Source: Psammoneis japonica
Lineage: Eukaryota
Direction: 5' to 3'
Assembly: GCA_008632985.1 (NCBI GenBank)
Contig: QPGO01000068.1
Coordinates: forward strand, 378,570 to 418,143
DNA length: 39,574 bases
Within the stretch, counting starts at the first letter, position 1. Every line of letters starts with the position of its first letter. The notes beneath the pieces were generated by a model, which saw only the letters and a list, made by a program, of their open reading frames with translations, made no database searches and was not told where the DNA came from. This document shows positions 9,918 to 36,689 of the stretch, piece after piece. The translations under genes were made by a program, and so were the position numbers.

Positions 9918-10769
9918 TCTGGGACAGTTGCCAAACAACCTTTCCCCCAACTAATCCAACGAGTTTTTGCTGTTCACCTTCTGCACAGGACGAGACCACG
10001 AATTTCCCTTTCTAAAGTCTCTTGATTGTTACGGTTCGGCAACGACTGTTCGACACCAATTTCTTGATTGATTTGGTTTCTCAATGACCACAACACACAA
10101 ACCAAAAGGATGCATGGACCAATTTGGCAAGAATGGATCCAGTTCGGAGGGCAACAACTGCATGTTATGGGAAAAGATGAGGGCTTATTTCTTTGTGCTC
10201 GATTTAGAAAATGACCTTTTCCACAAGATTGCTGATGACCTCTTTATTAAGCCCGGTGTTGTGTTCACACTGCACCATACAGAGTATAATAATGCCCATT
10301 TTCAACGGAAATTGACTAGAGAAAATGACTCAATAGAGTCATTGAAGTGCTAAATCGATGAGCGCATGTAACGTCATGGCGTTAGGTAGGTATCTGCAGC
10401 ACCAATACAGACAGTACAATACAGCCAGCAGTCGCATTAGGGACATAAATGGGCATAAATCTTCTACATAAATGGCACGCCCGCCAATGCGGACCGGACG
10501 GTGGATGGAGACTAAAATTGTCCTGGTGCAGCTTGCATGGCAGCATGACATGCCGAGCACACTGCAAAGGCTGCTGCTTCTAGAGTGTTCCCTCTAATGA
10601 ATTCTGTGCATCCAGAGTTGCATTTTGCAAATCAAGTGCTCATGGTGCCGCATTGTCCAGCACTTGATGTGCGTGCTCAATTGAAGTGTTTGAGCTTCTT
10701 GCAGGTTTGTGTGTTTGCGGGCTTGTGTTCAGCACTGCAACACCTTGAGCCACAGCTCTGGGTTGGCAT

Positions 10770-11930: not shown

Positions 11931-12199
11931 CTCACCCCCGTGCACCATTTTTGCTGCCTTGTTTGTAGAACTGTGCTTGCACAGGAACTCTCTCTTGGGG
12001 ACAGTTCTTGAAAGTGTGGGCCCTTCCAGTCTTTGACACTGGCTTTTGTGTTTTGCTCACTGTGTTGTTTCTGCATTGAATCAATTGCAAAACCATCGGC
12101 TTAAAAGCAGAAATGTTTTGGCTTCATTTCAATGACCTTTCCAGGGATTTTGCAGCTTCTGTCAATGTGGAGACAACAGCTCTTCTGACCTTGACAAGC

Positions 12200-15329: not shown

Positions 15330-16130
15330 AGGGCACCAACTGGAATTTTCTGTCACCACCTTGCCCCTTGGCCATGGCACTGTGACCCATTTCTGGACGG
15401 CCAAGACACCAAAACATCAACCATCACCAGTGACCGAAAAGAAGCCACCCACACACACTTGTCAAAATTTTGTTTCTGATGCAGTGTCTGCTGCTGGTCT
15501 CTTGACAGTGGCAACATGGGGGGCAGAGATGGCATCTGCTCAAGAAGCAACTGCAGCCAAGGAAGGTGGCATTGCCCTCTTCAAGCTGCTGTTGGTCTCA
15601 AGTGCATTGAATTGAAACCAGTGCTGGACCGTCCCCTCAATGTGGTCAACTTGTTGCCATCTCGTGTGCAGCTCATGTCAAACTCCCCAACAAGAACAAG
15701 GAAAAATTCGATTCCAACAGGATGCTGTTGAAACATGGAAATGGTTGAACTGTTGCAGGCTTGGATGAGGGCTTGCACACCATGAAAGTTGGGGGCGTGT
15801 GTCGTGTTGTTATTCCACCAAAGTCAAGCTTTGTAGATTCTGGCTTGGGGCTTCTGCCAGCTGGTCCCTTTGATCAAAGAAAACTCAACAAATTGCTGGA
15901 TCAAATGGTGGCTGCTTGGAATGGCAATGCAATCTTTGATGTCGAGTTGCAGCAAGTTTTGGATGATGAAGCAGACCAAGGCTGCTACGAGGATGGTTCC
16001 TCAATGCCTGATCAATTCAACACTTTGCAAAACAACATTCAAGAAAAGGCTTCCAAGGCTGCCATGGAAGAAATGGAAAATGGCAAGGGCGAGCACCTTT
16101 CCCACCACCCCAACAGTGTAAACCAGCAGA
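15330..16130 (+). pseudogene. FKBP-type peptidyl-prolyl isomerase pseudogene (plastid/thylakoid FKBP-like)
   Basis: GLKCIELKP-(fs)-AGPSPQCGQLVAISCAAHVKLP..KFDS..LLKHGNG*TVAGLDEGLHTMKVGGVCRVVIPPK..IFDVEL: full FKBP motif set with Y->C/H, R->stop and frameshifts. Confidence 0.85.
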
Positions 16131-16199
16131 AGAGTTTCTTTCTAATTAGCACAGCAGCATGCACTGGAGCAGTCATGACATTGAAACTTCTGTTTCACA

Positions 16200-17250
16200 A
16201 AGAGTGCATGTGGTGCTAGTTCTCAGAGAGTCCACCAATGCTGCAGCACAATCTGGGGACACTGCATCAACTCTGGGAGCATCAGCCGCCATGCCAATTG
16301 CCAGATTAGCACCAGCAATTGCTGATGATGCCATGGCAAATGCTGGAAAAGCACGGAGCACCAAGCACACATTCATCTGACTGTGTGATGAGGATGCTTT
16401 GGGTGAGAACATGATGACCTCTGTGACATTGCCAAATGAACGCTCTCCTGATGAAAACACAAATGCCAAGAGTTCCTGGATGGATTGCTTCTGCTTCTGG
16501 TGATGATTCAATCCTTCCAAATGTCAGATTGCAAGTTGGGAGCAAGTGAGGTGGTGCCCACCTTGTGTGGTTGTGTTTCACAATGTCAACTCCACACAGC
16601 ATGTGTGCATGAGGTTGTGTGCTGTGAAACATGCGTCCTGGTGCAAGACCCAGCTGGTCGGCGAGTTGTTTAATTTCACTGCACAAGCACCACCACCAAT
16701 TTCTCTGATGCTGCAGCCACAGTGCAGTGGGACAGTCAAACACACAAAGGCCATTTTGGGAATTTGCAGGTTGTGCCTTCTCTGTCAAGAGTCCAATTTG
16801 TCTTTGAGTGTGGCAAGTCCAACCCCAAATGAGATGAGGGTGGTGAGTCCATTCACCGATGATGGCCACTTGACTTTTGTTGTGCAGTGCAGTGGTCAAG
16901 AGAAACATTCCTGATGGCATGGAGTAGAGAATGACAGAGACATGGCCAAAAGCACCAAGCAAATGCTGGCCAACTGCTGTGTTTGCACTGCATTCAGCAT
17001 GGGGAGCTGCAGCCACACAAAAAAGGAGGATTTTGACTGCCAGTTCTCCACCAAAGATTTGGAAGGCAACAAGCACCCCCCCCAAGAGAACAACAGAGTT
17101 TGACAAAGCTGAAAAAGTTCCAAGCACCTGGCTTGTCATCAGGCCCAGTGAGAGTGACCTGGCTGCTGAAGCCAAGCATTTGCACTCATCAGCTGTGAAG
17201 AGAATGGGCAGACAAAGCAGCGGCAGGTCACCTCAATCACCATGATGCTT
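16200..17250 (-). pseudogene. Decayed multi-pass membrane protein gene (transporter-like)
   Basis: Several hydrophobic segments (SVVLLGGVLVAFQIF, VKILLFCVAAAP, LLGAFGHVSVILY, CLVLRAFPAFAMASS); family not established. Confidence 0.4.
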
Positions 17251-18649
17251 GGGCAGACTTTGCAGCAACAGTTTGTGAAAACTCTCAAGCACCCTGCATC
17301 ATGGCTCCAGTTTTTATGAGAGTGGACTTCCAGCTGCAGGCACCAATTGGAGAGAAATGTGGCATGGATGTGGTGTGCTGCCCTGCTTCATTTGTGCAGG
17401 CTGTGCCTTCTCAAGTCAATGTGGTCTTGGATGTTGTTGACAAGTGTGTCATGCCCAACTGCTGGGAGAGAAAGCTCCCTGCAAATGACCCACAAATTGG
17501 CAGAAATTTGAAGCTTGCTGGAACAAAGAGGTGCATCTCAGGATGACAACTGGCCCAGTGGTTTGACAAGACCCAAGAATGTGTGTCAAGTCAGAGGAGA
17601 AACTGGGTTGTTGACAACCTTTCAAAGCAATGAATTGACCAGCAGCACTGCAGCCATTGGCCTCACATTTTTAACACATTGCAGAGGAAACAGTTTGCAA
17701 AAGAGTGGATGTGGAGACATGGAAGCTGGGTTGGCCATGAAGAGCTGAGCAGCAGTGCCACAAGTGTGCAAACAATGCCAACAAAGGTTGACACATGGAG
17801 CAAGCAATTTGAACAAAAACCTGCATGGCTCCAAAATGGTTGCCACATTGACTTGAATTTTGGAGGCTGCAGTCATGCCCAAGACTGACACAGCTCTCCA
17901 CAGGATGTGCACAAATCCATGGGTGAGCTTCATGCTGACATCAATGGATGGTTTTGGTGCAGGCAACCCAATGGACACAAACACATGCCAAGTGGGGTTG
18001 TTGACAGGTCTCCTTCTGTGGGCCTGCATCAGGTGAAGCAAAGAACAGCAACTGTCAGATGCAACAGTGATCAAGCCCCAAAGAATGCTCCTGATTTGCA
18101 GTGCAATCTTGCTGTGAATTGTCAACAATTTGACCTGCTTTCTTTTCCACATGATTGGCTCAGGAAATCCTCACTTGCTGCCTTGGACTTTGTTTGAAAC
18201 AGAGTGCCATTTGGACAACTCAATTGCATTTGAGGATTTAGATTAACCTTCCTCCTGCCAGATGATGAACTCAGCAGACATGAGTGCCAGAGCAAAGGAG
18301 AGAGGTCAGCAGAGATGCATGAACTGCCTCACAACAAACAAGCATGCCCCGTGCAATCACTTGTCAAAATGCACCATGGCATTTGGCACATGCTGTGCTT
18401 GTGCCATTTTGTTGCCATGTCTGCAATTGCATGCTGCAAAAAATGCTTGTGATGTTGTTTCATCCTCAGCTCTGCTGGCCCAAGCATTTCTGGGACTTTT
18501 GTGTTGAGATTCAACAATGAAGGCACCACTTTTCTGGAAGGCTTGTAGCAGCCACATCTCTGTGGCAATGTGGTTGTCTTCATTCTGAGTTGCTTCCTCT
18601 GCGTTGGCATGCAATGCACTGGTGTGATGCACCCACTGCAATTGTGCCA

Positions 18650-19100
18650 TGCAGCTCAATTCCAGAGGTGAGAAACATCTCAAATGGCAAGAAAAGCAAG
18701 CAAGTGTTGCAGCTTCTTTTGTTCTGGTGCTGCTGGAAAATGGTTCATGGGAGCCACCCATGCCAACTTTGCAAGCAGTGAAGAAGATGTCAAAGACTGC
18801 AAGATCATTGTTGGCTTGATTTTGCTTGTCTCCATTGTCATGTCTTTGGGGGTCGTGCTTGACACTTTGGCCATTTTCAAATTTTGTTGCTGCATTGCAC
18901 TGAAATGTCATCTGCATCTCTTTGCAAGAACACAACCTGTTTTTTGGTTGGAGCTGCTCTGGCAGGAGCCCTTTTCATCAACACTCTCATTGTGAACAGT
19001 GCTCAGGAGGGAGTTGGCATGGGTGGATGCTGCCGCTGCAGCACTTGCCTCTGCAGCATTGCTTCACTCATTGTTGACATGGGACTCCGGTGCTCCACAA
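18650..19100 (+). pseudogene. Decayed small membrane protein gene
   Basis: Hydrophobic pieces IIVGLILLVSIVMSLGVVL and CFLVGAALAGALFI across a frameshift. Confidence 0.3.
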
Positions 19101-20199
19101 CTGCTGCAGGCTGCAAACAAGGAACTTCAATCTGGTTGCCTTGTTTGTGGGTGTTGAGTCAAGGAGACAGTGCTGACAAGTGGCGGAGTGGTGGCTCCTT
19201 GGACCAGAGGATCTAGAACCAAAAGCATTGGAAGACAAAACCAGGAGGGTGAGCGAAGTCATCCAGGGAGCCACCGTGCACAATGTTGTGAAGCAGCGCT
19301 GCATGACATTTGTGTGCTGATGTGTTGGGAAGAAAATTTGCTGTGCAATGACAGAGACTTCCTTTCCAGTGTCTGACTGGGTGCCTGGCTGCCCAGTTGC
19401 CACCACATCTGTGAGGTGGCATTCTCACAACACGTTTTGCCTGCAACAGCTGTCAAAGTTTCTTGCTTCACTTGAGATCTGAGCAAGTTGTCATCAGGTT
19501 TCCACACAGCCACACATTCTGTTGATCTCCTCACTCATGTTTTCAAAGGAATCAAAGTTTTTCAAGACATCTTCAACTGCATTTCTTGTGTGCAAGAAGC
19601 AATGACAAAAAGAGTTGCACAAGTGACACAGCATCAAGTGCTTCCAAAGTTGGGTGCCACGCATTGCAGCCCCAGATTCTAGTGTCAAGTGCTGCTGCCA
19701 CAACCCCAGCTGCAACCAAGGGGCTGCACTTCTTTGTCATCATTGACACTGTCCAGCCATCACAGACTCTGACACAGGAAGAGGCAGTGGCTGGATGTGA
19801 CTGGAGACAAGCTTTTGCTGTGGAAATCAGGCTGGGCCTTTCAGCACCCATTTGGGGGGGGGGGAGCACATGTTTGCAAATTTGGTTGCTGGTTTCCTTG
19901 GCAAACATGGCTGCCTGTTGGCCTTGGCTGGGGATGTGACCAAGCTGTGCATGGGGGAGGTTGTTGTTTGCCCACCACAAAGAGGCTTTTGTGGGCACTC
20001 TGTTCTGAAAAAGAGCTTGCAAAGCAAGAAAACAGCAAAGAAGTTCACACAATCAGCACAAGTGCTGCTGCTGCCATCATTCTTGTTTGTGCCTCCAACC
20101 CCAGAAGCATGAAAAGGGCCCCATTTGTGCCAGACACATTGGCTGCACTTGCAACTGAAATTTTCAGGATGGCACACTGTTCGGAGCTGGCAAGCTGGT

Positions 20200-21160
20200 G
20201 AACTGGGTTGAGACAACTGTGCCATTGATGGCATGCTGATGCTGTGAGTTGTGCTCAGAGCAGCTGGCACAGCACTGGAGAGGGCACAGCAGAAAAGGCA
20301 AAGGACAGGGCTGCACTTGACCCAGAAGATGACATTGTTGAGGGGGCTCAATGGCAGGAGTTGTGCTTCTTTGAGCAGATGATGGGATTGTTGAGGGCAT
20401 CTTAGAAGGTGCAAAAGATGGAAAGTCAGCTGACTGCAATGAAGCTGCTGTTGAAGACATTGCTTGGTGTTGAACTCAGCAGTGTTGCAAATGGAGTTTT
20501 CAACATCACAGCAGAAGGTGTTGTGGAGATGACAATTGTTTTTTCTGTGGGCAGTGCTGTTGAAGGCATGTTGCTGGTTGCTTGGTGTCAAACTTGGAGC
20601 TGTGGACAGAGCACAGAGCAGTTGAAGGAACAACAGAGGGTGCCACAAATGACAAATCACTTGGTTTGAAGGTGCATCACTTGGTGCCAAACTTGGAATT
20701 GCAGGTGGAGAGGTCAGGAGCAAAGAAGAAGGCATCACAGATGGAACATTGCTTGGTTCTGCTGTGGGTGCTTTGGAGGCATGTCATCATTTGGTGCCAA
20801 ACTTTGTGCTGCAGACAGAGCAGCCCTCAAGGCACTGTTGAAGAGATGAAAGATGGGGCAAGCCACTTGGTGGTTTGGCTGAAAAGGTGCTGTCAAAGAT
20901 GTGTTTCTTGGCACTGAGCTCAGGGTTGCCAATGGAGCAGTTGAGGGAACAGCAGAGGCTGACATTGATGGGATGTGGCTTGGTTTTGCTGACAGCATTG
21001 GTGTCAGCTGGCACAGTTTCTGCAGATGTTGCCACACCCAGAATTGAGCATCACAGCCAGCAGAAGGGACAGCAGTTGCCTTGTGAGCTCAGACCACCTG
21101 TGCAGTGGTGAACAAGAATTGCAGCAACAGTGCAAAGCAAAACCCCAAGGTGAGGAGCAT
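20200..21160 (-). pseudogene. Decayed second Pro/Ser-repeat secreted protein gene
   Basis: ATG at 21160 with signal-like MLLTLGFCFALLLQFLFTTAQ; fragments SASAVPSTAP, PAIPSLAPSDAPSNQ, DFPSFAPSKMPSTIPSS in shifting frames; TA and CG nearly absent. Confidence 0.65.
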
Positions 21161-21379
21161 TTTATTTTTCTTTTCTGCACCATGGTGACAACTGCTTTCC
21201 AATCATTGTGAGCTGATTCATTTGTCTCTTGCTTGTGGCCAGCACTTCTGCTTTGCAAGACACATGAAAGAGAAGCTCCACAAGCAACAAATCCTGTTGA
21301 AGGTCTAGATTTGTGATCTGCCATGCACCAGGAATCATCCAAGTCAGATCATCTGACAGAATTGATGGATTGAGGAGAG

Positions 21380-21776
21380 TGCAGAAATGAGCCAGATGAC
21401 AGCACAAGCTGGAGCAACAACAATCATCTAAATGGCATGCAAGCCTCAACAGCAGCACAAGAGCCATCAAGTGATCCTGGTTCTCATGAACATAGAAATC
21501 CGCAAGAAGTGAGAGAAGGAGAAGGGAGCCCCAAAAGCAACTGAAAAAGTCAGAAGAGAGAAAAGACACTGTTTCAGTGCCAACCCCACAAGAAGACCAT
21601 GGATTGGATGATCACCAAAAAAAGCAGACCAAAATGATGGGCCAAAAGATGTTGGCCCATGAAACCCAAGAGTCCACAAGCAAGGACAGAGGACCAAAAC
21701 TCTCACAAACACCAACAGCAAAATTGCGTGCATCACTGACCTGTGTCACAGATCAGAAACCAGAACTCTTGTTGCT
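21380..21776 (-). repeat. 3' LTR of Copia 2
   Basis: Aligns with 27252-27617 plus 34454-34484; adjacent to PPT AAGAGAGAG (minus, 21777-21785). Confidence 0.85.
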
Positions 21777-21899
21777 CTCTCTCTTGAGAAGATGTCAACT
21801 GCAAGACATCAGATTGCCGCTGAGATTTCAAAATAAAGTTTGCACCAAAACACAACCCATCATGCAATGATGAAAACCACAAAATGAATCTGCCACATC

Positions 21900-24800
21900 C
21901 TGCCACCCCATGATCTTCTTCCACAAATGCTCAGACTTCTCCTGCACCAAACCCTTTGTCAAGGCATCAGCCCACTGCTCTTCACTGGCAATCTTCTGAG
22001 TGCAAATCATGGAGTCAAGTTCTGAAATGTGAGACTTGAAAAAGTGATGCTTGACCCCAATGTGCTTGGTGCGCAGAGCCATCTTTGGCATTGTGGCCAA
22101 CATCAAAGCACCGTTGTTGTCCTCAAAAACAGGAGTGGAGCAACATTTCATCATCCTGATTGGCACTCATCAAAGAGGAGACCTCCTTGACAAGCTCTTT
22201 CATGGGTGGCAGAACTCTCATTGCCTGAGATGGGGCAACACACTCTGCCTTGAGTGTGGACAACACAATCTTGGTCTGCAGCTTGGAAGCCCAAATCAAT
22301 GGGTTGCCGCCAATGGTCAAAAAGTGCCTAGACCAAATCTTGATGCACACAGGATCTTGTGGGTCCTTGCAGTTTCAAAGTTCAGCAAAAGTCACGTCAC
22401 AACAACAGTTCAACCTTGAGCTGTTGGAGACAGTGAAAATGACACCACGATCCTTTGTGCCTTGAAGACACCCAACAATCTGCTTGACCACTTCCTCATG
22501 GCTCTTCTTGGGATTGTGCATGAACCCAGCCAGCAGCTGTGGACTGCATGTTGAATGCAAGCCTTGCATTGGAGGCCAAGCAGAGCATCGTGCCAATGAT
22601 GCTGGTGCAGCTCCATGATTTGACTCACTTAGAACCATCAGCATGTTGGCAGCTGAAGGAGTTGAGCTGGATGGAGTCTTCTTCATCATGTGACAATCCT
22701 TTACATTCACAGCAGCAACACTCTTTTTGATGAGACCCTTTTGAGTGAGATGGAGAGTCCCAGCCTCATCGTCCCCGTCAATGTTGATGCCAAGAAAACC
22801 ATTTGCATCATCCTCAACATCAAGTTCACAGCCGCTGGCCTTGAGTTCACTCACAATGTTGTCGATTTTGTAAGATCTTTTGCAAAGAACAAACAATCAT
22901 CCACACACACGAGACAAACAACGTCTTTGCTGAAGAACAAACATGGACCACTCTTGCTAGAGTGCAATCTGACCTCTTCCAGACCCTTGGACAAATGCTG
23001 GAACCATGCAGTTGTGGCTTGTTGCAATCCACACAAGCTCTTGTTCAGCTTTAATGTGCACAGCCACCTTCATCTTCCATCTCAAAGAGCCAGGCAATTC
23101 AACACAAACATCCTCTTCAATGTCTGCCCAAGCAAAAGCAAGGGTGTGGTCAACTTGACAGGATGCCAATCCATGCATGAAGATTTGACAGACTCGCAGA
23201 GGCAACTGAACCATGCTCTGCTGGACCACTGGAGCACAAGTCTCAAAGAGATCAATTCCTGCTTGTTGATGGTTCCCTTGCACACAAAACCGTGCCTTGA
23301 ACTTCTTGAGACATCCATCAGGGTTTCTCTTGATCACAAGCACCCAAGTGCCAGGCAAAACATTTGCACTCAACTGCACTGACTCACGTTGCACCAGAGC
23401 AAATGAGCTGCACTGCATCAAGTCACAATCTTGAAATGCACAGCTTTCTTGAACTCTTCCACACATGGTCCTGCCATCACTTCATGACACACAGGAGCAT
23501 CAGGATTGTGAGTCTTCTTGCTTGCAAAAGAACCCAACAAATGTGCTGACAGTGGACATGCAGCATTGATGCCATCACCGTCAAGGTCAGCAAACATCGC
23601 ACACATCTTTGCAAATTCCACTGTCCTGCAACCAGACTTGAGCCAACATGTTAAATTGGAAACAAAAGAAGCCATGCCTTTGAGGGCATGTCCATCACAA
23701 CCATGCTTGTCAGTCCTTTCACAGCCATGATGTTCTAGAGGACAAACTGTTCTTCCAGAGCTTGTCTGAGTCAGAGTCAGAGTTGAAGCATCTGGAGCTT
23801 CTGGGAAATGGTTGTCATGATCAGCAACCAAAGGTGCATCTTGAGATCTGGGAATTCCAGAGTCTCCCCTTGAGCCTCTGTTGCATCAGCTAGAGACAAA
23901 GGAGCTTCAACACTTGGAGGAGTGTTTTCATTGTGAACAAAATCTGAAGACAATGGAAGATCTGGCAAAATGTCATTGGAGTGTGAAACACTGAACTGTC
24001 TGGGAGCACTGGATTTTGAATTGTCCTTGAGAAGAAGAAGGTGCTCCAGGGATCCAGGTGTCCTCTCTCTCTGTTTCATTGGCATTGACACTTGTGCTCT
24101 TTGTTGCCTCCACAACTCTTCCTGTTCAGCATGTTGATCATGCAATTCTTCAGCAGCAAGCCAATCATCTGATGATGGAGGCAGGTGCAATCCTTCATCA
24201 TTCTCCACGTGACATCTTGAAGTGGTGAGGAGATCCAACCAGTTTCTTGGTGGTCCATGCTCATCATCCAAGTGGACCATCTCAAACCAATTGTCACAGA
24301 CAACATGGAATTGAGGCAACACAGAACCACTCTTGAGGTTTCTAATTGAACCAATGTCACTCACATGGACAGGCGCATGACCCACAAATTGTCCTCTGCA
24401 ACTTTGGGCTTTCCAACATGGCATTTCTTGCCATCTTGCAATGTTGGATCCAACACACAGGTCGGACAACCCCAAACAGCTGAATTTGTGAGGGTTGAAC
24501 TTGAAGAAACTTTCACTCATGTGAAGACTTGTTTGGGACACAATCCATCAAAATCCATTCAAGGGGTCAAATTCCACAAGTGGACAGAATTGCTCACATC
24601 TCACATCCATGGGCCACAAATCCATCTCCGGTGCATCTGGCCATCAAACTGCAGCATGAAACATCACAGTCTGAGCTCTTTTGGTGACAGGGTGAATTGC
24701 TTGCTCAGCAATTGCACTCTGATGGTGTGCACCAACACCAGCAAGCTTCCTTCCCTGTCCTTTCTCTCCTCAAATTCCTTGAGGAATTCTTTGCTCACGA

Positions 24801-27143
24801 ACATGCCACCATGCTCTTGCAGCATGTCTGATGCAAATTTTGGCTAAATTTGTCTGTCACACATGGGCAGATGTCTTTCTTCTGATCCACTGCTGAAAAA
24901 GGATTCCTTCCAGTTGCAATGGGGAGCCTGTTAGTTTCATGACAAGGCACAGCAACAGTGCTGCAGTCATGCCAATGAAAGAATGTGTGGTCTTTTGAGG
25001 TGTCAACATCAAGCCTGCAGCCCAAACCCCTGCCATTCTTCTTGTCATGCCCACATGATGAGTGACACTCAACTTCACAGGAGAGGTTGGAATGCAAAAG
25101 CACTTGGCGTGGATGTGTTGCTCGCATCTGGCACATCATCAAACACCGTCCACTCAACAACTCCCACACCTCCCATGAACATGACCTCCAACACCCAAGG
25201 ATGACGGAAGTGGTTCTGTGTTGTTGAACAACTCAAAAGTCCCAGGTGCAAAGTCCTCCTTGTCAAAAGCAAAAGTTGCGCTCACCCCAGAATTGAGTGA
25301 AATCTCAAATTGCTTGTTGTGAGGGGACAAGAAGGACACCAGAAGATGATCAACTTGTTCCTGCAAATCAACGTTCACAAAATGGTGAGAGTTCAGCAGA
25401 GTTGGGTGGTTTCTTCTTCTTGGGCATCTCCGCATGTGGATGACACCTGCAAATCACACAACAGAGCATTGCTGAAGACCACATGGATGCAACGTGTGCC
25501 AACAAAATGCACATGGCTTCTGTGATGCTTCCAACATCACTGAATCTGAGTCTTCTTTGATGTTGGACTCCGTCCGACAATCGGTTTTAAAGAGAACAGA
25601 GCCCTTTGTGAATGGCAAACCAACAGTCCACTGGACCAACAAGTTGCACACCAAAGCACCACCCACAAAGATTTGATTTGATGTGTTCTGGGTCAAAGTG
25701 CATTCTTGGGAAGCTTGAACAGTGCCACCAGAACCTTGCACAGAAGGGTCCCAAGTGACATTGCTCCTGTTGGCATTTGAGGTGTGACCCTTGGATTGAT
25801 CTTGAGCAGCAGCAGCAGGGTTCTGACTGTTTGCACTGGTGCCTCCCTCTGGAGCCAAAGGACCAGCAGTTTCATGAGTGGCCCAACACCCACATCTGCT
25901 GTGTCAATGCTTGGTTGCACTGTTGGAGACTCGAGTGTGAGATTCTCCACATGTCAGAGGAATCCTGCAAGGGTCCCTGGGATTGCAAGTGATCTGGCAT
26001 TGCCAAGGACTGCAGCAATCTCCTCAACCACATCAGTCTGCCTTGATCTCCATGAACACCACATCCACCACAACCTTGATCTCCACATCCACCGCCACCT
26101 CCTTGACTTGTCATTGTTGTTCTGAGGGAAGTGTGGATGGATGTGGCCTTGCTGACCACATTTGTGGCAAAACACAGTCATCCGCACAGTTTGGAAATGC
26201 AGCAGAACTGGACTTGCCTGCATCAAAAGGCATCCATTCTTTGTGATCCATCAAACTGGCACATGACTTGTTGGCATGAACAAGATCATCACATGTGTGT
26301 TTCATTGGATCCATGTTGACTTCATTGAAGAGAGTCATGAACCTTGACAGTCAATGTTGCAAGACCACTGTAAAGGATTGAAGCAGCATCTTCAGGAAGT
26401 TTGTGATGACCTTCCAGATGTCTGCAAAATTCAGCCAACTTTGCAGTGGAGTTCTTGATGTTCTCACCCAGTTCTTCCATGAGTTTCACAGCCTTGAGTT
26501 TGTCCACCACTGCACAGAGAGCCAATGCAGTGGATGCATGCAACTCGGCAGCAACAAGCTTGTAAATGATGGGCCCATGCGCAGGTCCATTGGCGCACTT
26601 TTGGACATCACCACATGCAGCAACACCAACTGAGTTGAGAAAGAACTCTGCAGACCACCATGAGCTCTGATGATCACATTGGTCACCCACAGTGAGCAAG
26701 TCTTAAACATGATCCTCAACCTCTTGCAGGTCCAACAAACTGCAATCCATTTTGAGATTCAACTCTAGAAGTGCCCCTGTCCTTGGATCTCTGCTCTGGA
26801 CACAGAACGCCAAATCCATGCTGCTCATGAGAAGGTGTTTGCCAACAGAGTTGGTCTGACTGATGAGAGTCACCTTGCAATCCATGTTGGTGTCAATCTT
26901 CTTCAACTCCAAACCTTTCTGACAATGGGGTGCAATTGTCATTGAATGATGGAATGACGTTGGACGTCAGCAATGTGGGCCGCATGCCATGGCATGTGGA
27001 TCAACAACTCGTGGACCACTGATCCAAGCAATGTTGTTGATGATGCCACCAATTTGAGGAACAACTGACACAGCAGTGTGGTGTGTGGCTTGATCCTCCT
27101 CAAGATGCAGAGAAATGTCCTGGAGATTGTTGCTTGGACTCAT
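21900..27143 (-). pseudogene. gag-pol of Copia 2 (many stops and frameshifts)
   Basis: Gag knuckle CHKCGQQGH; RT VLPGTWVLVIKRNPDG..KARFCVQG and LVCVDD; RNase H AECVAPSQAMR, EDNNGA, KHIGVKHH, ADALTKGL, KIMGW. Confidence 0.85.
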
Positions 27144-27240
27144 TGCTCAAAATCATCTGGTGCATCATCCTCAAACAGATTGGCGTCATCATCCCTGACC
27201 AGGATGTTGCCTGATCCTGCTGAACAATCACTCAACACTT

Positions 27241-27252
27241 GAGCTCACAACC
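27241..27252 (-). other. Primer-binding site of Copia 2 (internal tRNA-iMet type)
   Basis: Minus strand GGTTGTGAGCTC beside the 5' LTR resembles the Copia half-tRNA-iMet PBS GGTTATGRGCCC after TA->TG. Confidence 0.6.
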
Positions 27253-27617
27253 ACAGAAATGAGCAAGATGACAGCATGAGCTGGGGTGACAGCAATCATG
27301 CAAACAGCGCACAAGCCTCAACAGTGTGTGAGCTGTCAAAGTCATCCTGGTCCTCACAAATGTGGAAATTCACAAGAAGTGAGAGAAGGAGAAGGGAGCC
27401 CCAAAAGCAACCAAGAAAGTCAGAAGAGAGAAAAGACACTGTTTCAGTGCCAACCCCACAAGAAGATCACAGATTGGACAACAACCGAAAAAAAGCAAAC
27501 CAAAACAATGGACCAAAAGATGTCAGCACACAAAACCCAATGGTCCACAAGCAAGGACAGAGGACCAAAACTCTCACAAAGACAGTGACAGCAAAATTGT
27601 GTGTGTCACCATCCTGC
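27252..27617 (-). repeat. 5' LTR of Copia 2, main part (remainder at 34454-34484)
   Basis: Direct repeat of 21380-21744; homology resumes after Copia 3 (ATCACAGATCAGAGCTGGAAGTCTTGTTGCT). Confidence 0.85.
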
Positions 27618-27799
27618 CGAATAAATGCCGATGCAGCCGCGTGGGGCAATGACAGCACCTTGAGCCCAAGAGCAGTGGTGACAAACCAAAGAGAACCCCA
27701 TGTCGATTGGATCGCACAAGATTGTGGGAAAGAACAAACCACCAGATTGTGCGCGTCAGCCCCGGACCAGGGACTGACCGCTCCACCCAGATTTACTCG
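27618..27799 (-). repeat. 3' LTR (182-bp shared repeat) of Copia 3
   Basis: Ungapped match to 34268-34449 with 18 transitions. Confidence 0.92.
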
Positions 27800-27963
27800 G
27801 TCCCCGCGAAACGGCAGTGACAACGCCGATTCGTCTAAACCTAGAACATCCTCTCATAGAGAGGTAAACACAAAACCCAAATTCAGACCACCAGCAATGC
27901 TGGCTTGGGAGGCCAAAAACACGTGGGCGCAAGCCGCAGGTGTCTGGCCTTGGTGTCGGGGCT

Positions 27964-30900
27964 CTACCAAAAGATGCAAGAGCAAAGTTTCCAACGCCGC
28001 TCTCCCGTCGTCACCTTCGTAAACAAATCCGCCAAATTCGTGTCCGTGTCCTCCTTCCCGATGCGAACAATGCCAGCCGCAACCGCTTCACGAACCAAAT
28101 GACAGTTGATGGCATTGTGCTTCTTGTGCAACACAGATTCCAGAATGCTGACGTTCTTCACCACGCCGCGGTTGTCGCAAAATACATTGGCAGGGCCTTC
28201 AATCGGTGCTCCAAACATACGAAGTTTGTAACGCAAAGCAACAATCAACTCCTTGCAAATGCGCATCGCAACCAATTCGCTGCCAAACGTCGCCGACTCC
28301 ACTGTGTTCTGCCGCTTGCTAAACCAAATGATCGGAGCATTGTTCACGAATGTCAAAATCCCGCCATGCGATCTGCGAGTGACAACGTTTCCCGCATGGT
28401 TAGCGTCAACAAATGCAGACACATTTGCCGGGTTGCCACGGGGCTTGGGCATCCGTGGCGGCAACTCCTCCTCAACGTCCCCATAAAACTCCGTCCAGTC
28501 CGCAGTAGAATTGAAAACAGATTCGTCAATCACAGGCATCTTCGGGTCAAAACCAATGCGACCGACATTCAAATGCTTCTTCATGTGCGCGAACACGTGG
28601 TGCAATGCTTCGAGGTGCCCTTTCCTTGGGTTGGCTTGACACTGAGAGAGAATGGAAACTTCATGCAAGACATCGACACGGCCCAACTCGATCGCCCAAC
28701 GACAAATGCCAATCAACTGCAAATGCCTGTCCACCAAATCGGGTCCCAACTCGTCCGTCACGTCTAATTCTGGCTTGCACTTAGAAGGCAGTGGGTCCCT
28801 CACATTGTTCTTCAAGACTGCTCCGTCACCGTCCTCTTCTAACAGCCCTTCCACCGTCTTGATCGCCGACTTGACACACGACTTCGGTGAGCTTGCCCAA
28901 ATGGCACGCCCATCTTTGGTCTGAACCTTCTCGACGTCGGCTCCAAGGCACAACGATGGCTCTCCTTCACTCGCAGGTTTGACAGCAAATGATTCACCCG
29001 TGCTCTCGACAATGGATTTTCCTTGATGAGAAATGATTAGAATGTCGTCAACACAAACCAAAAGCATTTCATAATGCTCACGCCCATCGTCGCGAGTTGC
29101 CGCACGAATGTGAACGTCGGGATCCGCCTTCGTTGATTCAAAACCCATGTTCCGTAAAACCGATGCCAATGCGGACCTCCAAGAGTGTCCAGAGCTCTTC
29201 AAACCGCACAGCGCTCGAGTCACCACTAGAACCTTGCCTTGGCACTCTCCACATTCCCTGCCACCTTCGAACCAGATCTTCTCCGCACACGGGGCATTCA
29301 AGTGCGTGTTCTCCAGGTCGACAGCCGTGATGTCCACTCCATTCAATGCTGCCAGCAGGAATCCTAACCGTGCGCTATCCCTCGAAACAACACTTGAGCA
29401 TGTGATCGATGATGGTGTTTCCGCAGCATGACCTCCTGCAACAAATCTGGCCTTCCCAGTGAAATCCATCTTTACGTCGAACACCAAATGGCACCTGATC
29501 TCCTGACAACCACGTAAAGTTGCACTCTTGCCTTCCCGGACGACTTGAGGGGTTTCAGCTTCATGTTCGCGCCACGCTGTCTTGACCTTGTTCATCTCCT
29601 TGTTGATTGCGCGAGCCCAACAGTCCGTCCCCGTTTCCTGGTCAATCTTCAAAGCATCTTCCGTAGACTTGGGTAAACGTGTGCCGAACTTGTGGGCAGT
29701 GCGCCAATGTTTCTTCTCAACCTTCGAGATGATGCAATTCCGCTTGCGCAAAACATGTGTGACACACCAAGCAAACGCTGGTTCTTCGGTTAACCTGTTC
29801 GCTGCAGCATGCTCAGCAAGTTCAATTGGGTTAGACTCCTTCAGATCCTTGAGTTTCACCCACGACGAGCTGCCGTCCTTCCATGCGACCAATGGGTTCC
29901 ATCCTTTCGCAGTTATCTTCTTATGTTCGTTCCCGTCAGCTGTCTGAACTGTTCCTTCCTGGATCGGCATGGCTTCGCCGGTCTTTTCGTGATCCTGCAT
30001 CTCCTGTAAAATAGAATGCTGGTTGCCTTCGCTGTCAACTTGAGCAAACACATTCTCCGCGATCACATTGGCAGTGCACTTGTCTCTGGTGCCGTCTGTG
30101 CATTCAATCTCACATTCGCGGGTGTCAAACATTGGATTCTGATGCCGGGTTCCAATCGGTCGCCCATCCTGACCTCGTGCCCGCTTGACTGCGACTCCTC
30201 GCCGTTCAGCGTTAGTCCCAACATCAAACATAAGTTCCATTCCGAGACATTGATCAATTGCCTGTTCGTCGTCGTCCTCGGGTCGTTCTCCTGGCAACAA
30301 CATGTCCCCGTGTTCCTCATCGGTTGGTGTCACACCGCCTTCATGTTCCACGCCGGGGTTGCCGTCGATCGCCAAATCATCCAATGCAAATGCTGGTGCC
30401 GCTTCGTCGCCTTGTAAAACGAAATTGGTGTCATCTAACCGTGCCTCCAGTTGTTCGTTAAACTTGTCGACTTTCACACGAATGTCCGGCTGCACCATGT
30501 CGGCCTGCGTTACATGCTCGACCGAAGTCTTCGAAACTGTCTTCCCGGATTCCGTGATGATCCAATGACACATGTCCGATCCGACCTTGTGAGACATGCC
30601 AAGCCATCGTCCAAGCCTCCTCGGGTCATCTGTTGCATTCGGCTTGTCGTGTCTGTCCCACCACCAGACCAGATCATAGAAACCGAAGTCCAAATGCTTG
30701 CCTGTTTCGGGTGTCTGACCAGTTGCCTCTTCACACCCAGTCCGTTTGTCGCGGCCTCTTGCCATGCGAGATACAAGTTCCGATTCATAAACTAGACCAA
30801 AATCCCACAATCGTTTCGGCACCTTCTTCCTTGTCATCCGCAGGCGCCAACGCTTGGCCAAGAACCCGATCTCTCTTTCTGCTGCGTGATTCTGATTCTT

Positions 30901-32295
30901 ACGACCTTGTTCCGTTGTCCTGAGTTGGATCCTCATTCGACGTGCGTGTTTCACAAACTCGGCACTTCGTCCTGTGAACTCTCCAGCACCATCCGATGTG
31001 AGATGCTCCGGCACTCCCACATCGTCTGTAAAGTCAACGAGAGACAAACCTGCCTCCGACCTTGCGGTCATTGGCACAACCTTTACGAACTTGCCCTGAG
31101 TGCAAACATTGGCACAAGTGTTGCCGAGCAAAGACTTCACCTTGGACATTAACGTGTCCACAAACCATGTCCCTTTTAATCTTTTCTGATGCAGGTCCAA
31201 GTGATCCACCCCAACTCTCCTTGACATTGGTTGGGTCGCCGTCCGCACACCGCGCTGTGCAGTTACATTGAGAGTGTCCTTAGCCGTTTCCAAGCCGACG
31301 CTCCACTTTCGTGCTAGCTCTTCAGCGTCGATCTTGGAGTGACGGTCCTCACTGCGCAATTCCTCAACCGCTCTTGCTCTTTCGTCTGCGTCTGACCCAC
31401 ACGCACAAGCCACGTTGACTGAACTGATGAGCCTGTCACAAAAGGATTGAAGATGATAGACTGGAGACAATCGAGTGAGTTCAGCTTCAACCTCGCCCCA
31501 TTGGACTGCTTGAGACTTGGCCCTGTCGCTCTTCATTTCTGAAATCTGTTCCTGTCTCATGCCAGATGTCATCGAACGGACAGTGCGCATCTCAGATTGC
31601 TCCCTTGTACGCTGTGGTGAACCCATGTCGACTTCCGTTGGACTCCATGCGTCTCCTGTCAGCAGCATCACTGGCAAGTTCTTCTCCTCCCAATCCGTCG
31701 GAACACGAGACTTGAAAGATGCAATTGTCCCCATGGAATTGAAAGGTGTGAAAGCTTCATCAGCTTCGACTCCAAACCCATTTCGAGTGTCGCAAGGGTT
31801 GTCGTGTACGGGTGTGTCACACGCTCGCAACTGATTGGGGTTCAACAATGAATGCTGCATGTCAGTTCCAAACCACAGCATTTGGTCTCCAACCAGCAAG
31901 TGCTCGCGAGTCGTTTCCGGATCCGTCCACACTGTGCAACAACGCGCCACAGGAATCTGTTTAACCGGCTCATACGAATCTAGAAACGGGTGCACTTCAC
32001 AGACTTTGTTCGTCAATTCCACAAGTTTCCAGTTAGCGCCAGCACAACAAGCACCCGCATGAGTGTCACATTCGTTCCTCGCCATGAAGCCGGGTGTCGT
32101 TAAGTTCGTCATCGCGGTGGCAGTCGTTGACCTTGTCACACGTTTCGAAGTCAAAGCAACGCGCCTTTTCGTTACCTTCTCTTGCAAATGAAATGTTGGG
32201 TGGGGTTTAGTTGACAACATGATGAGCAACATGAACACAAATGACATGTGCACCAAACACGCCAATGCTCCCGTAGTTGAAACCACCCCGATCAG
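27964..32295 (-). pseudogene. pol: pol of Copia 3 (protease, integrase, chromo-like domain, RT, RNase H); uninterrupted but hypermutated
   Basis: 1440-aa ORF: DTHAG (protease DTHAD-like), FVDT/SDGAGEF/AEREI (DDE integrase), KARFVAGGH, LVCVDD, VDANHAG, FCDN, ADLFTK. Only about 7 Tyr remain. Confidence 0.9.
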
Positions 32296-33819
32296 TCAAA
32301 CATGACCTTGACAGGCCCCTCGACCGAAAGCGCGCCCATTCCTGCCACCACGATCACGGTCAGCTCCGCGACCGCGGCCACCGTTTTCACCTTGCGCTTG
32401 ACCTTGCTGCCCTTGACCTTGACGGTCTTGAACCTGAGCTTCGGCTGCTTGCCTGTTGCCTCCGTCGCGTCCGCCTCTTCCTGCAGGGTTTCCTCGACCA
32501 CCGCGTCCGTGCATCCTTTCACGAGCTTGAAAAACATAATTGAGACCTCCGTTAAAGCGCAATCTGTCCCATTCCTGGTCGGCAAATGTCCTCGTAGGAT
32601 CCGACACATCGACTCCGTTAATCACAGTTGTGCGATCACCACCCCTTCCTTGATGTCCTCCGCGTCCTCCACCGCGGCCAAATCTGCCGCCACGCCCACG
32701 ACCGCCGCGATGGAAACCTCGGCCACCACCGCCACCTCGGCTGATCTGAGAAATCTTGCGCTTTGTGCAATGCCGGGCTTCCAACTGAGCACCTGCATGT
32801 AAACGAGAGACTTCGGATGAGAAATGAGCACACGCCCCCGCGAAGTCACGAGGGTGCTGGTTGCCAATGACGGCCGTAGCCGCCACAAGACGGGCATCCT
32901 CCGATTTGACACCCTTCTGTGACATTTCAACCTTCTGCCGAGCAGACATGCTTTCATCCGGAACCTCATCCAAAGTGGCAAAGGCACTGGTGAGTTTCTC
33001 CGTGAATTTCTCAAACGTAAGTGCACCTTCCTTTTTGTAGAGTGACGTTTCAACATTGGCCTTGGCCAAATGAACTCGCTTGCTCAATTCGCCTTCGCCA
33101 TTGCAATGGTTGACCCAGGCCCAGAATGCTTCGCGTCCATTATCTGTTGCATCGTATGGCTCAATCCAAGCCCAACCAGCCGCATCAATCAAATGCTCTT
33201 TTAACATGCGACACACGCGACGATCATCCACATCAAACGCGTCTCCGGCGAGCGGCAACTGATGCATGCGCTCCTCCTGATTGTCCGCGAACTCCGCCGG
33301 TGCAGGCATCCTCCTCGCGACATGTTTCAACGGCTCCTTAAGTGCACCAAGCTTCTGCGCCAACAAGTTCAAGAAAGCGTCTTCACACACGTCAAAATCT
33401 TCCGCTTTGAATTTGGTGAGGCTGTCAACCATCGCAGTGGATTCCGTAAACTCCTTTTCAATGCGCCTGCCGTCCCCAGCCGCCGCCACAGCTGCAATGT
33501 TAAAATTCGCCACGACCAGTGGCTGGTTCCGTTTCGTTAAATCTCTCAACCACCAAACCAACGCCTGCAAGTTCTTAATCTGTGTCATCCCTGGCGTCAC
33601 GCGTCCATCGGCTGCTGTACGATGAGCCGCCCTTTGGGCTAGATCCTCAACATCATGGTCCGTTTCCATGACAGCAACATTCTCAAGAGCAGCAAACCCT
33701 TCATAGAAAACAAGCCTCGCCCCAGCGTGTTGGTCAACAACACCACAAACCTGCAATGCCGTGTCTACGTCAGCCGCCGCGGCCAAAGCCGCAAGTGCCA
33801 CTGCTGGTGCCGCTGCCAT
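32296..33819 (-). CDS. gag: Gag of Copia 3 with RGG-rich C-terminus (no CCHC knuckle seen); hypermutated
   Basis: Long ORF upstream of and in frame with pol; likely start MAAAPAVALA at 33819; GRGGRG-rich tail. Confidence 0.8.
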   Translation of the reverse strand: MAAAPAVALAALAAAADVDTALQVCGVVDQHAGARLVFYEGFAALENVAVMETDHDVEDLAQRAAHRTAADGRVTPGMTQIKNLQALVWWLRDLTKRNQPLVVANFNIAAVAAAGDGRRIEKEFTESTAMVDSLTKFKAEDFDVCEDAFLNLLAQKLGALKEPLKHVARRMPAPAEFADNQEERMHQLPLAGDAFDVDDRRVCRMLKEHLIDAAGWAWIEPYDATDNGREAFWAWVNHCNGEGELSKRVHLAKANVETSLYKKEGALTFEKFTEKLTSAFATLDEVPDESMSARQKVEMSQKGVKSEDARLVAATAVIGNQHPRDFAGACAHFSSEVSRLHAGAQLEARHCTKRKISQISRGGGGGRGFHRGGRGRGGRFGRGGGRGGHQGRGGDRTTVINGVDVSDPTRTFADQEWDRLRFNGGLNYVFQARERMHGRGGRGNPAGRGGRDGGNRQAAEAQVQDRQGQGQQGQAQGENGGRGRGADRDRGGRNGRAFGRGACQGHV

Positions 33820-34253
33820 CCCATGACAAGAGAAATGGAGGCAATGACCCATGCAATGGGTCACAATTTGGTGTGAGTGCGCATGGCATAGGAGGCCACA
33901 CCGACCGGTGCCGTGATGGCGGGTTCACATAGCCAACCGACTTTGGGGTGATCAATCCAGTGTCGTTTCCATCGTGAGCACACGCTTGGGCATGCTGCCC
34001 AACACCGCAGTCGTTCCACACCCGTTAACAACATGGAGATGGTGACCACTTTGCGAGTGTTTTCCGTTGCAAGCTGTTTCCTTTGGTCGTCACACGCGAC
34101 ACAGAGCACACGCTGCACGCGACAACCCCCTTTCGATGCCACGCGTACGAATCAGTACATTTTCTACAGCTGCTCGTTCCATGCACACAATCACAACAAT
34201 CAACCGTTTGCAACGAGTTGTTTCCTTGTCCGTTTCGTTCAGCTTTTCATCAA

Positions 34254-34264
34254 TGGCTCTGACA
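34254..34264 (-). other. PBS-like site of Copia 3 (tRNA-iMet 3' end)
   Basis: Minus strand TGTCAGAGCCA equals TATCAGAGCCA after TA->TG, but is preceded by CTT rather than TGG. Confidence 0.55.
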
Positions 34265-34267
34265 AAG

Positions 34268-34449
34268 CGAATGAATGCCGATGTGGCCGCGTGGGGCAAT
34301 GACAGCACCTCAAGCCTAAGAGCAGCAGTGACAAACCAAAGAGAACCCTGTGTCGATTAGATCGTGTGAGATTGTGGGAAAGAACAAACCACCAGATCGT
34401 GCGCATCAGCCCCGGACCAGGGACTGACCGCTCCACCCAGATTTGCTCG
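34268..34449 (-). repeat. 5' LTR (182-bp shared repeat) of Copia 3
   Basis: Ungapped match to 27618-27799. Confidence 0.92.
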
Positions 34450-36689
34450 CTGCATCACAGATCAGAGCTGGAAGTCTTGTTGCTGGAATGAGCCAACAGA
34501 TGCAACCAACATGGAAGCTGTGTGTCAATTGCTTTCAACATTGGAGACTGCATGCAATCTAAAACACAAATTACATCCCAAGTTGTCTGCGCCAATGGAG
34601 CACGTGTTTTGTGTGTGACATTGAATTCTTGCATGCTTTCCCAGTCTTTGCACCACAACGATGCTTTTGGCATCCTCAACAATGTCCTCCTCAGTCTCAC
34701 CTTCACCCAAAATGCTGAGACAATCTTTGTCAACAACCCCAGAAAAAAGAACAACACCCTTGTTGATGTCCTTGTGCTGGCAGGATGAGACCTTGCATTT
34801 TCTGTTGACAGGGGGGGTTTGCTTGGAAGAAGTCATCTCATTGTGCCCACCTCAAAAAGTCCTCCCAAACCATCATCACAGCCACAATTCCTTCATTGTT
34901 TGTCAACAAAGCAGCAGTTGATGAGGTTGACATCCTTTTTGTGCCAGTGGTGGGACACAACCTTGTGTTTTTTGTCTGGGGTGGTGGCCTTGCTTCAAAG
35001 TGCTTGGCAGATTTTTGTGTGAGTCGTCACTTTGCTGGCAACCCACCAACAATTTGAATGGAACTTGCTTTGTTCAAGAAATCTTGCTCTGACGCAGGTG
35101 ACAACATCATCCACAACATGAGATTTTGCTGTTCTGGATCAGTTGTCTGGTGTTGCTCTCCATTCAAACCTGGAGCCACAAGACAGAAAGCTGTCTTCAG
35201 TGGCTCAAGAAGCACTGTGCTGCAGTCCATGAGGAGCGCCTGAGTCTGCCAAGGGAGCCAGTGGCAACAACAAGAGCAAGCACACCCACACTGAATGACG
35301 TGCAGTGTGTTTGCTGCAACATGCCTTGGTGTGGCCTGTGACATTGCAGCAGTTGATGCCTGCTGAGCAAATGAATCAAAAATGAAATGAGTGTCAACCA
35401 CATTGGCAGAAAAATGATGGCAACCAATGTGCTCTCAAGAAGGTTGCTCCAATTGAGGAGTGATGGCACACCTGACAACTGATCACACTCATCTCTGGTC
35501 TGTGGCCTGCAGATGGAGAAATGCTTTGGCATCACATTGGCACAATGAATGAGTGTGTTTTTGTGTGTGTCTTTGCCACATTTGCAACAGCCACAAATTC
35601 AAAATCTTGTGAGCTGACATGAAATGCAACGCCACTCCACACAGCATCATGCCATCCATCCATCTGTCCATCCAACCAGTTTTGCCATCAGCAAGGCATG
35701 TGCGGGGCACCAACAACCATTGCAGACATGGACAAAAAGATCAAGGATTCTTGCAAAACACTTTTCTGACTTCCAGCTGTTGTTTTGCATTTGGCAGTCA
35801 CTTGTTGTTCCCCTGTTGACTGAGATGGAGACTTGGTTGCCTGTTGCTGCTCTTGTTGTCTTGCCAAGTCAAGTTGATTGATGGTTTCCAACTCAACAGC
35901 TTGGTCTTTGCATCCCTTTCTTGCTCTGTCTCCAAGCACTCTGTGGCTGTTCTCTGCCACCTGCAAAACCAAGGCAAGCAACTTGGCATCTGACAGCCCA
36001 CCAAATCTGTGCTGTGTGCTGTTCATGCACACCTTTTTGACAACATCCCATTGCTCCATTGGCTCTGTTTTGTTCCCACATTGTCGCACTTTCTCTGTGC
36101 ACAAGTTTGTGCCCCACAAAACTCCCTCACATGTTTTCTCTTTGACAACAAATGCGTTGGGGGCAAACAACATTGCACTGTCAAATGTGTGACACCCTGC
36201 CATGTTGGCTTGGGCATTGTTTTCTTTGCCTTGTTCCAACAGCCAACCTGCATCTGTGCTGTTGCCACTGTCAATTTTGCCCAATGACAAGCCCTGTTTG
36301 TGTTGAGGCAAGCATGCATTTGCCCCAAAGACTCGACAAACAGTTGGCACACAAAGTGACAACAAACTTGCGCACCAACTCATTGTTGCCTTGACCCCTT
36401 TCCAGCTTGCCACAAACACTGCTTTGCAGCAGAGCACCGCTTCTTCCTCACAATGTCTGCTCTTGGTTTTTCCAAGAAACTTGCCGTGCCCTTTGTCAAC
36501 AAGCAACATCTGCTGCAGCAGCTCTCAAGCATGCCGCTGAATTCTTGCTGCTCTCTTGACTTCTCTTTTGTGGCAATGGCTGTGCCACATCCACATGACT
36601 TTGCACTTGGCTTGGGGCTGTCGGCGCAAGCATGCCCCAAAGCCTCCCATGACACCTGCTCCATGTCTGATGCCCAGCGTTTTTGCAAG

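Follow-up and report, generated by a model that had tools for sequence, protein, structure and literature searches.

A recently inserted Copia retrotransposon of Psammoneis japonica, probably hypermutated at TpA dinucleotides after integration

The closest described parallel to the mutation pattern considered here comes from mutation-accumulation lines of Bigelowiella natans. Of the 302 nuclear mutations there, 231 hit an integrated giant virus and virophage; A>G or T>C changes made up 230 of the 231, and every one of the 230 was on TpA (Mettrop et al. 2026, bioRxiv 10.64898/2026.01.13.699255). The same preprint gives a rate of ~6e-7 per site per generation, ~1000x background, describes 124 clusters of TpA-poor, CpA+TpG-rich windows, reports that TpA-poor coding sequences (CDS) are enriched in reverse-transcriptase and DDE domains, and puts forward an ADAT2-like adenosine deaminase as the enzyme. 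It was the only description of this TpA signature found in our literature search. The words retrotransposon, LTR, diatom and flanking are absent from its main text (its supplementary cluster tables could include similar regions), and hypermutation and dinucleotides are not mentioned in the accessible text of Maumus et al. 2009 (PMC2806351). Here we describe a 39,574-nt stretch of Psammoneis japonica DNA (contig QPGO01000068.1, positions 378,570 to 418,143; hereafter the window) that contains Copia 3, a Copia retrotransposon with long terminal repeats (LTRs).

We consider it probable, with good confidence, that Copia 3 is a recent insertion that was subjected, after integration, to locally targeted TpA hypermutation (TA to TG or CA) acting on transposon DNA. 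The TpA target, the direction towards G:C, the strand symmetry, the timing after integration and the regional targeting are demonstrated by the comparisons below. The parts of Copia 3 are as follows.

27618..27799, minus strand: LTR (3' LTR in the element's orientation, from the repeat pair and the minus-strand open reading frames)
34268..34449, minus strand: LTR (5' LTR in the element's orientation, from the repeat pair)
27614..27617, no strand: target-site duplication CTGC, left copy (the same four bases lie beyond the other LTR)
34450..34453, no strand: target-site duplication CTGC, right copy (matches the left copy)
27964..32286, minus strand: pol frame of 1440 aa, open though "mutated to death" (translation; RVT_2; YVDD reads CVDD)
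32296..33864, minus strand: Gag-like frame of 522 aa with a Gly/Arg-rich tail (translation; Tyr 0.77%; TA observed/expected ratio, o/e, 0.18-0.36 across the three codon phases)
34255..34264, minus strand: possible primer-binding site, 3 nt past the 5' LTR (a lead only)

A repeat search returns the two LTRs as a single direct pair (182 nt each, 90% identity, start-to-start spacing 6650). Ungapped comparison gives 18 differences, 18/18 of them transitions, and no indels. All are held in 12 pyrimidine-purine (YR) steps: CA/TG 6 (including an adjacent pair, CACA versus TGTG), TA/TG 3, TA/CA 1, CG/TG 1 and CG/CA 1. The 90 LTR positions inside YR steps carry 18/18 differences and the 92 outside carry none; the chance that 18 random differences would all fall within those 90 positions is ~3e-6. 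Once recoded as purine/pyrimidine, the LTRs are 100% identical. The YR steps that are identical in both copies comprise CG/CG 10, CA/CA 13, TG/TG 10 and TA/TA 0, and the 2 TA remaining in each LTR include none common to both. Sixteen of the 18 differences are compatible with TpA ancestry, and for the CG/TG and CG/CA sites ordinary CpG decay is the best reading. A first-pass annotation, made by hand alignment of the two 182-bp copies, had arrived at 18 differences, all transitions and without indels, in 12 dinucleotides (4 TA, 6 CA/TG and 2 CG), with most CpGs kept in both copies; our position-by-position recount is exact on the first point, the table of YR steps reproduces the 12 dinucleotides exactly, and the 10 CG/CG steps against 2 CG sites changed in one copy agree with the third.

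Copia 3 is a single insertion whose LTRs were identical at integration, because CTGC stands on both flanks and because an older, degenerate element, Copia 2, into one LTR of which Copia 3 is inserted, retains in its left LTR an uninterrupted paralogue of the landing site (21741-21744). Where the two LTRs of a single insertion carry opposite outcomes at the same site, mutation in the transcript or during reverse transcription is excluded. The annotation's claim that mutation followed integration, and was not reverse-transcription error or RNA editing, is therefore supported.

Two hallmarks of Copia elements are present, namely terminal direct repeats with a short target-site duplication and a Copia-type reverse transcriptase. 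The pol frame matches Pfam RVT_2 (E 3e-11, 43.8 bits versus a cut-off of 31.6). In a Pfam search of the mutated pol protein no integrase family passed, and the precomputed Pfam column of its homologues lists only PF07727; the 522-aa Gag-like frame has no Pfam match. We identified 971 pol homologues, the best 68% identical, and among the 120 listed the only named ones are from the diatom Fragilaria crotonensis. No second copy of the Copia 3 family was identified within the 39,574-nt window. The plus-strand termini of both LTRs read CGA...TCG (27618-27620, 27797-27799, 34268-34270 and 34447-34449), not the usual TG...CA. The possible primer-binding site resembles the plant-Copia initiator-tRNA-Met site with one TA read as TG, again as a lead only. 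A 4-nt target duplication (TTCC) is reported for the diatom Copia element Blackbeard in the text of PMC2806351.

The direction of change was read from conserved residues of pol, aligned with 60 homologues (MAFFT), a conserved Tyr column being one with Tyr in >=80% of the homologues. At the 24 conserved Tyr columns Copia 3 has Cys 10, His 7, Tyr 6 and Phe 1, so that 17/24 conserved Tyr are now Cys or His (TAY to TGY or CAY). Other conserved residues are mostly retained (Phe 25/27, His 17/18, Lys 30/31, Arg 43/51), and only 1 of the 51 conserved Arg columns reads Cys and 1 Gln. The direction is thus TA to TG or CA and not CG decay, because conserved Tyr is mostly Cys or His while Arg is kept. 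The YVDD box of the reverse transcriptase has become CVDD (residue 1078, Tyr to Cys), and the Tyr content of the whole protein is 0.49%, against a homologue median of 3.2%. Of 616 conserved columns 78 are changed; a single TA>TG (22) or TA>CA (15) change explains 37 of them and CG>TG/CA explains 7. Codon contexts are uniform: 6/6 Thr>Ala changes are preceded by T, 4/4 Ile>Thr codons are ACA and 3/3 Val>Ala codons are GCA. The alignment indicates that TA is ancestral in Copia 3 and that ~70% of TA has decayed to TG or CA.

The coding outcomes are strand-symmetric (22 TG versus 15 CA, p 0.32), in agreement with the independent action on both strands that the annotation had proposed, and runs tests along Copia 3 detect no strand-wise clustering (p 0.53 and 0.54). 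Symmetry and the lack of runs together fit numerous hits made one at a time and independently, not a single processive sweep.

The joint states of the LTRs were fitted with a model in which p is the chance that an ancestral TA has decayed in a given LTR copy, CA and TG being equally likely products. Sites that can be recognised fall into three classes (no hit, one hit, two opposite hits), with counts of 0, 4 and 6; taking p as 17/24, the coding-region value, 1.1, 5.5 and 3.3 are expected among the 10 visible sites. The maximised log-likelihood (lnL) is -2.9 for TA ancestry versus -13.3 for CG ancestry, a ratio of ~3x10^4. Together with the loss of 17/24 conserved Tyr, this upholds the suggestion that the CA/TG sites were TA (CACA/TGTG being consistent with ancestral TATA).

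The rest of the window was profiled as dinucleotide o/e in 500-nt steps. Its features are as follows.

1..1695, plus strand: Copia 1, the reverse-transcriptase part of another Copia family, running off the window start (RVT_2, E 5.5e-32)
6001..10500, minus strand: host-gene island encoding a PT-repeat/DUF11 protein (Pfam; TA o/e 0.35-0.8 and CG 0.8-1.25 per 500 nt)
10501..27250, no strand: TpA- and CpG-erased domain of old transposon debris (500-nt profile; 2001-6000 and 34454-39574 are alike)
21380..21744, minus strand: left LTR of the older Copia 2 (repeat alignment; includes the uninterrupted site)
27252..27617, resuming after 34449 to ~34484, minus strand: right LTR of Copia 2, split by Copia 3 (alignment with the left LTR)

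Over the whole window the o/e values are TpA 0.14, CpG 0.46, CpA 1.57 and TpG 1.74. TpA is almost erased across ~30 kb of transposon debris: its o/e is 0-0.15 in 59/60 steps over 2001-6000, 10501-27500 and 34501-39500 (highest at 16001-16500, 0.15). In these stretches CpG o/e is mostly 0-0.28 and CA+TG o/e is 1.5-2.0. The process is local to transposon DNA and spares the adjoining host gene, with the change completed within one 500-nt step: TA o/e goes from 0.09 to 0.73 across 5501/6001 and from 0.64 to 0.10 across 10001/10501. At mostly synonymous codon phases TpA o/e is 0.58-0.8 in the host frames versus 0.24-0.37 in the Copia 3 frames. The host gene has internal repeats at 7772-9420 with a period of 108-408 nt (PT repeats, DUF11) and normal TpA; repetition alone therefore does not attract the process. 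Its named homologues are from diatoms (Chaetoceros, Seminavis, Cylindrotheca, Amphora, Odontella and others), none from Bigelowiella, and no near-identical protein is on record, the best match being 40% identical.

An age series can be arranged from the elements in the window. Copia 3 (TpA ~0.23, CpG ~1.0) and Copia 1 are the youngest, with TpA ~0.25 and CpG ~1; the 2-3 kb stretch of the window is intermediate (TpA 0.07-0.09, CpG 0.62-0.74); and the debris is oldest (TpA ~0.03, CpG ~0.1). TpA is thus lost before CpG. The Copia 2 LTR pair has CA/TG 19, TA/TA 0 and CG/CG 0, with 20 differences (11 transitions, 9 transversions) in 216 non-YR positions, and faint pol similarity lies inside Copia 2 at 21909-23054 on the minus strand. 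Copia 1 (TA o/e 0.12-0.44, CG 0.73-1.06, Tyr 0.7%, Cys 3.2%, His 3.4%) looks like another recent victim of the TpA process. It was aligned with the pol homologues as a further Tyr test and set aside as too distant: 0/13 columns retain Tyr (3 His, 3 Cys, 4 Phe, 3 other).

The TAs that survive have a wider sequence motif (R, purine; Y, pyrimidine). In the old domain they are YTAR 38, mixed 17 and RTAY 0 (p 7e-14) and in Copia 3 they are YTAR 36, mixed 45 and RTAY 10 (p 7e-4), relative to a baseline in which all YR steps together split ~25%, 50% and 25%. TAs of the host island (YTAR 41, mixed 74, RTAY 52) show no significant departure. At conserved Tyr codons a 5' purine is present in 14/17 of the mutated and 1/6 of the kept (Fisher p 0.009). 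Because the survivors are mostly YTAR and the mutated Tyr codons have an excess of 5' purines, we infer that RTAY is mutated faster than YTAR.

Relatives of the element elsewhere rarely share the signature. Among 79 related metagenome loci the share of Tyr>Cys/His is <=0.10 in 78 and 0.8 in one, with 0.70 for Copia 3 (median 0 over the 80 rows scored, Copia 3 included), and TpA o/e is mostly 0.56-0.92 versus ~0.23 in Copia 3. The one exception, a 1590-nt metagenome contig (L029), encodes a pol relative that is 69% identical over residues 1070-1440 and shows the same signature (TpA o/e 0.26, CpG 0.79, 8/10 conserved Tyr as Cys or His). Two other metagenome contigs of ~2.1 kb (L032 and L034) have CpG o/e of 0.03 and 0.06, TpA of 0.47 and 0.38, and conserved Tyr kept at 13/15 each; they are a contrast case, ordinary CpG decay without the TpA process. 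In a database homologue of 1405 aa (P0027) Tyr is 1.7% and Cys+His 6.1% (medians for 146 homologues: 3.5% and 3.8%), which could mean that another record contains a copy that is partly hypermutated. A search of public sequencing runs returned one run (X1) containing the element at 0.46 of sampled words, plus two runs of the same sample, and listed no RNA runs containing Copia 3. At 80% likeness, 1890 contig pieces align, 434 of them >=99% alike; each transition type occurs at 412-451 places and each transversion type at 49-71. One X2 contig differs at 9 places over 34267-34345, in every case by C>T or G>A when read against the window. The differences are compatible with a copy that has mutated less, and CpG decay in that copy could explain some of them.

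Ordinary decay of 5-methylcytosine (5mC), acting by itself, would require each CA/TG site to have been a CpG, deaminated on one strand in one LTR and on the other strand in the other LTR. CG>TG and CG>CA are its classic outcomes, two LTR sites are CG versus TG or CA, and the process does operate in the window, where old DNA has CpG o/e of 0-0.28. We nevertheless regard it as very improbable for Copia 3, since the LTRs share 10 intact CpGs, against 2 changed once and 6 that would need two changes, classes (10, 2, 6) that no single rate fits, as the lnL values show. Element CpG o/e is ~1.0 while TpA is ~0.23, and most conserved Arg columns keep Arg while most conserved Tyr columns have lost Tyr. 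An ancestral CG at the CA/TG sites was rejected on these grounds (likelihood ~3e4 against, CpG o/e, Arg 43/51). ADAR-like A-to-I editing of the element RNA before reverse transcription would prefer UA, and the 5' U preference of ADAR (as given in bioRxiv 10.64898/2026.01.13.699255) agrees with TpA; some changes in the internal region could in principle predate integration. Such editing is just as hard to credit as the sole cause, as both LTRs are copied from one template, so that the 6 opposite-outcome sites arose after integration, both strands are affected equally, and old debris over tens of kb is down to TA o/e ~0.03. We give still less credence to a false LTR pair (a recombinant of two elements) or to misassembly or miscalled bases at a modified motif. 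The sole public run with the element covers it in part (0.46 of the words, as above), which would favor such an error; against it are the 4-nt duplication and empty-site paralogue, the 100% purine/pyrimidine identity, the 434/1890 mapped pieces that are >=99% alike, the normal TpA of a host gene in the same window and the same signature on the separate contig L029.

A different chemistry with the same target and direction was also weighed: a modified thymine at TpA (5-hydroxymethyluracil, base-J-like) mispairing with G, or very-short-patch-like repair of T:G or A:C towards G:C. In dinoflagellates hydroxymethyluracil occurs preferentially at TpA, and in enterobacteria CTAG is lost through Vsr repair. 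With both strands affected equally and TpA palindromic, T>C and A>G on opposite strands are indistinguishable by sequence. We consider this chemistry unlikely, as the literature searched records neither a base nor a repair system of this kind for diatoms, a repair bias requires a large supply of mismatches, and the only experimental study, the preprint on B. natans, proposes adenine deamination in its text, likewise without proof.

The leading candidate for the chemistry of TpA hypermutation in Copia 3, judging from the sequence pattern, is an enzyme that deaminates adenine in DNA. We propose the following course. Copia 3, a Ty1/Copia element of diatom type, inserted once and fairly recently into the LTR of Copia 2. 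Once it was integrated, the A in its TpAs was changed to G on one strand or the other, so that each TA ended randomly as TG or CA; the agent may be a deaminase (ADAT2/TadA-like or another) that is brought to foreign DNA under silencing, with inosine read as G. In this way ~70% of the TpAs of Copia 3 have gone, while ordinary positions stayed unchanged and CpGs hardly changed. The LTRs mutated independently, so that an ancestral TA is seen as CA/TG when both copies were hit on opposite strands and as TA/CA or TA/TG when one was hit, and ancestral TAs with the same outcome in both copies (CA/CA or TG/TG) are invisible. The process is confined to transposon-derived DNA and prefers RTAY over YTAR, and a slower CpG decay, presumably 5mC deamination, later erases CpG in the same domains.

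Several points weigh against this interpretation. Both the deaminase and its inosine product are predicted from the sequence pattern. Targeting is argued from a single host gene in a single window; that PT-repeat gene is of low complexity, and assignment to the diatom lineage by homology draws on named homologues only. Of the 78 changed conserved pol columns, 34 fit neither TpA nor CpG decay; they would most simply reflect family divergence, the closest homologue being 68% identical. The direction of change at the LTR sites is taken from the coding region and the likelihood fit; of the more than 2200 variant places in the aligned contig pieces, the 40 listed include none in the LTRs. Finally, p estimated from the LTRs only is 0.88 per copy and exceeds the coding estimate of 0.71, values that are compatible given 10 visible sites.

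A naive Kimura two-parameter (K2P) distance between the Copia 3 LTRs is 0.11, versus 0/92 differences at non-YR positions (95% upper bound 0.032). The annotation's warning that dating from LTR divergence would overestimate age is therefore well founded. In the Copia 2 pair ordinary positions are 9.3% different and YR positions 29%. For scale, the preprint on B. natans gives 231 mutations on ~8,469 TpA in 3,132 generations and a background of 3.5e-10 (bioRxiv 10.64898/2026.01.13.699255); if such rates applied here, a 70% loss of TpA would take ~1e5 generations, versus ~1.6e8 on the naive LTR clock, a calculation that serves as illustration. LTR dating, Kimura landscapes and repeat annotation would be biased in such genomes if our interpretation is true.

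TpA loss removes TAA and TAG and creates no stops, and so dead elements and debris keep long open frames that are called by gene finders. TpA-erased debris contains frames of 230-303 aa with no Pfam family (16306-17175, 19827-20738, 22690-23382, 23777-24541 and 35688-36509), which are probably artefacts of TAA/TAG loss and a hazard for gene prediction. At 36623-38000 a 9-nt unit is repeated in a long tandem array (120 register copies) with TpG o/e ~3 and almost no TpA, and both strands carry open frames of 448-527 aa across the array.

If TpA hypermutation of Copia 3 is confirmed, a process known from one 2026 preprint on one alga would also work elsewhere, on retrotransposons besides integrated viruses, and probably in a diatom, a member of a group of major marine primary producers. 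The RTAY preference and the sharp domain borders would then be handles for finding the enzyme and the targeting signal, and a naturally occurring enzyme that deaminates DNA adenine in duplex chromatin would interest the base-editing field. A wider scenario, which we put forward tentatively and would not yet bet on, is a defence resembling repeat-induced point mutation (RIP) with the opposite chemistry (DNA adenine deamination at RTAY). It may police diatom LTR retrotransposons in silenced, CpG-methylated domains, erasing nearly every TpA over tens of kb with frames left open, and may be shared with Bigelowiella and either old in the stramenopiles, alveolates and Rhizaria (SAR) or spread among marine algae.

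Compared with known systems, CpG decay through 5mC also ends in TG and CA and affects the same domains, where it appears as a second, slower process; it does not account for the CA/TG sites, the missing TpA or the change of Tyr to Cys and His. G-to-A mutation by APOBEC3 and editing by ADAR are likewise deaminase-type, context-specific transitions used as defence against retroelements. They act before integration on cDNA or RNA, on one strand, and leave both LTRs alike, whereas the LTRs of Copia 3 have diverged and both strands are equally affected. RIP of ascomycete fungi is alike in acting after integration, at the DNA level, through dinucleotide-specific transitions that kill transposons, leave a scar and spoil LTR dating. 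However, RIP converts CpA/TpG to TpA, makes new stop codons and lowers GC, while in Copia 3 TpA is converted to CpA/TpG, no stops arise and GC rises; the absence of strand-wise runs is a further difference. Fungal RIP itself was rejected as an explanation (TpA o/e 0.02-0.26, Tyr codons lost and not gained, long frames of 1440 and 522 aa persisting).

The system of B. natans, as its preprint describes it, is the nearest. Shared are A:T>G:C change at TpA only, giving TpG or CpA by strand and local to foreign DNA, and a long-term depletion of TpA with enrichment of CpA+TpG, reverse-transcriptase and DDE domains being among the TpA-poor CDS. The corresponding evidence in the window is the 18/18 transitions between the LTRs and, among polarised coding changes, 37 TA>TG/CA versus 7 CG>TG/CA, and in Copia 3 the ratio is bounded by ~70% of TpA lost versus 0/92 ordinary positions changed. 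B. natans differs in being a chlorarachniophyte in which an integrated giant virus and virophage are the targets and depletion is moderate (Rho TpA 0.45). New in this window are the LTR retrotransposon target, a probable diatom host (from diatom homologues), near-complete erasure of TpA over ~30 kb, a sharp border at the host gene, a preference for RTAY over YTAR, and the coincidence of the TpA-depleted domain with one depleted of CpG by decay.

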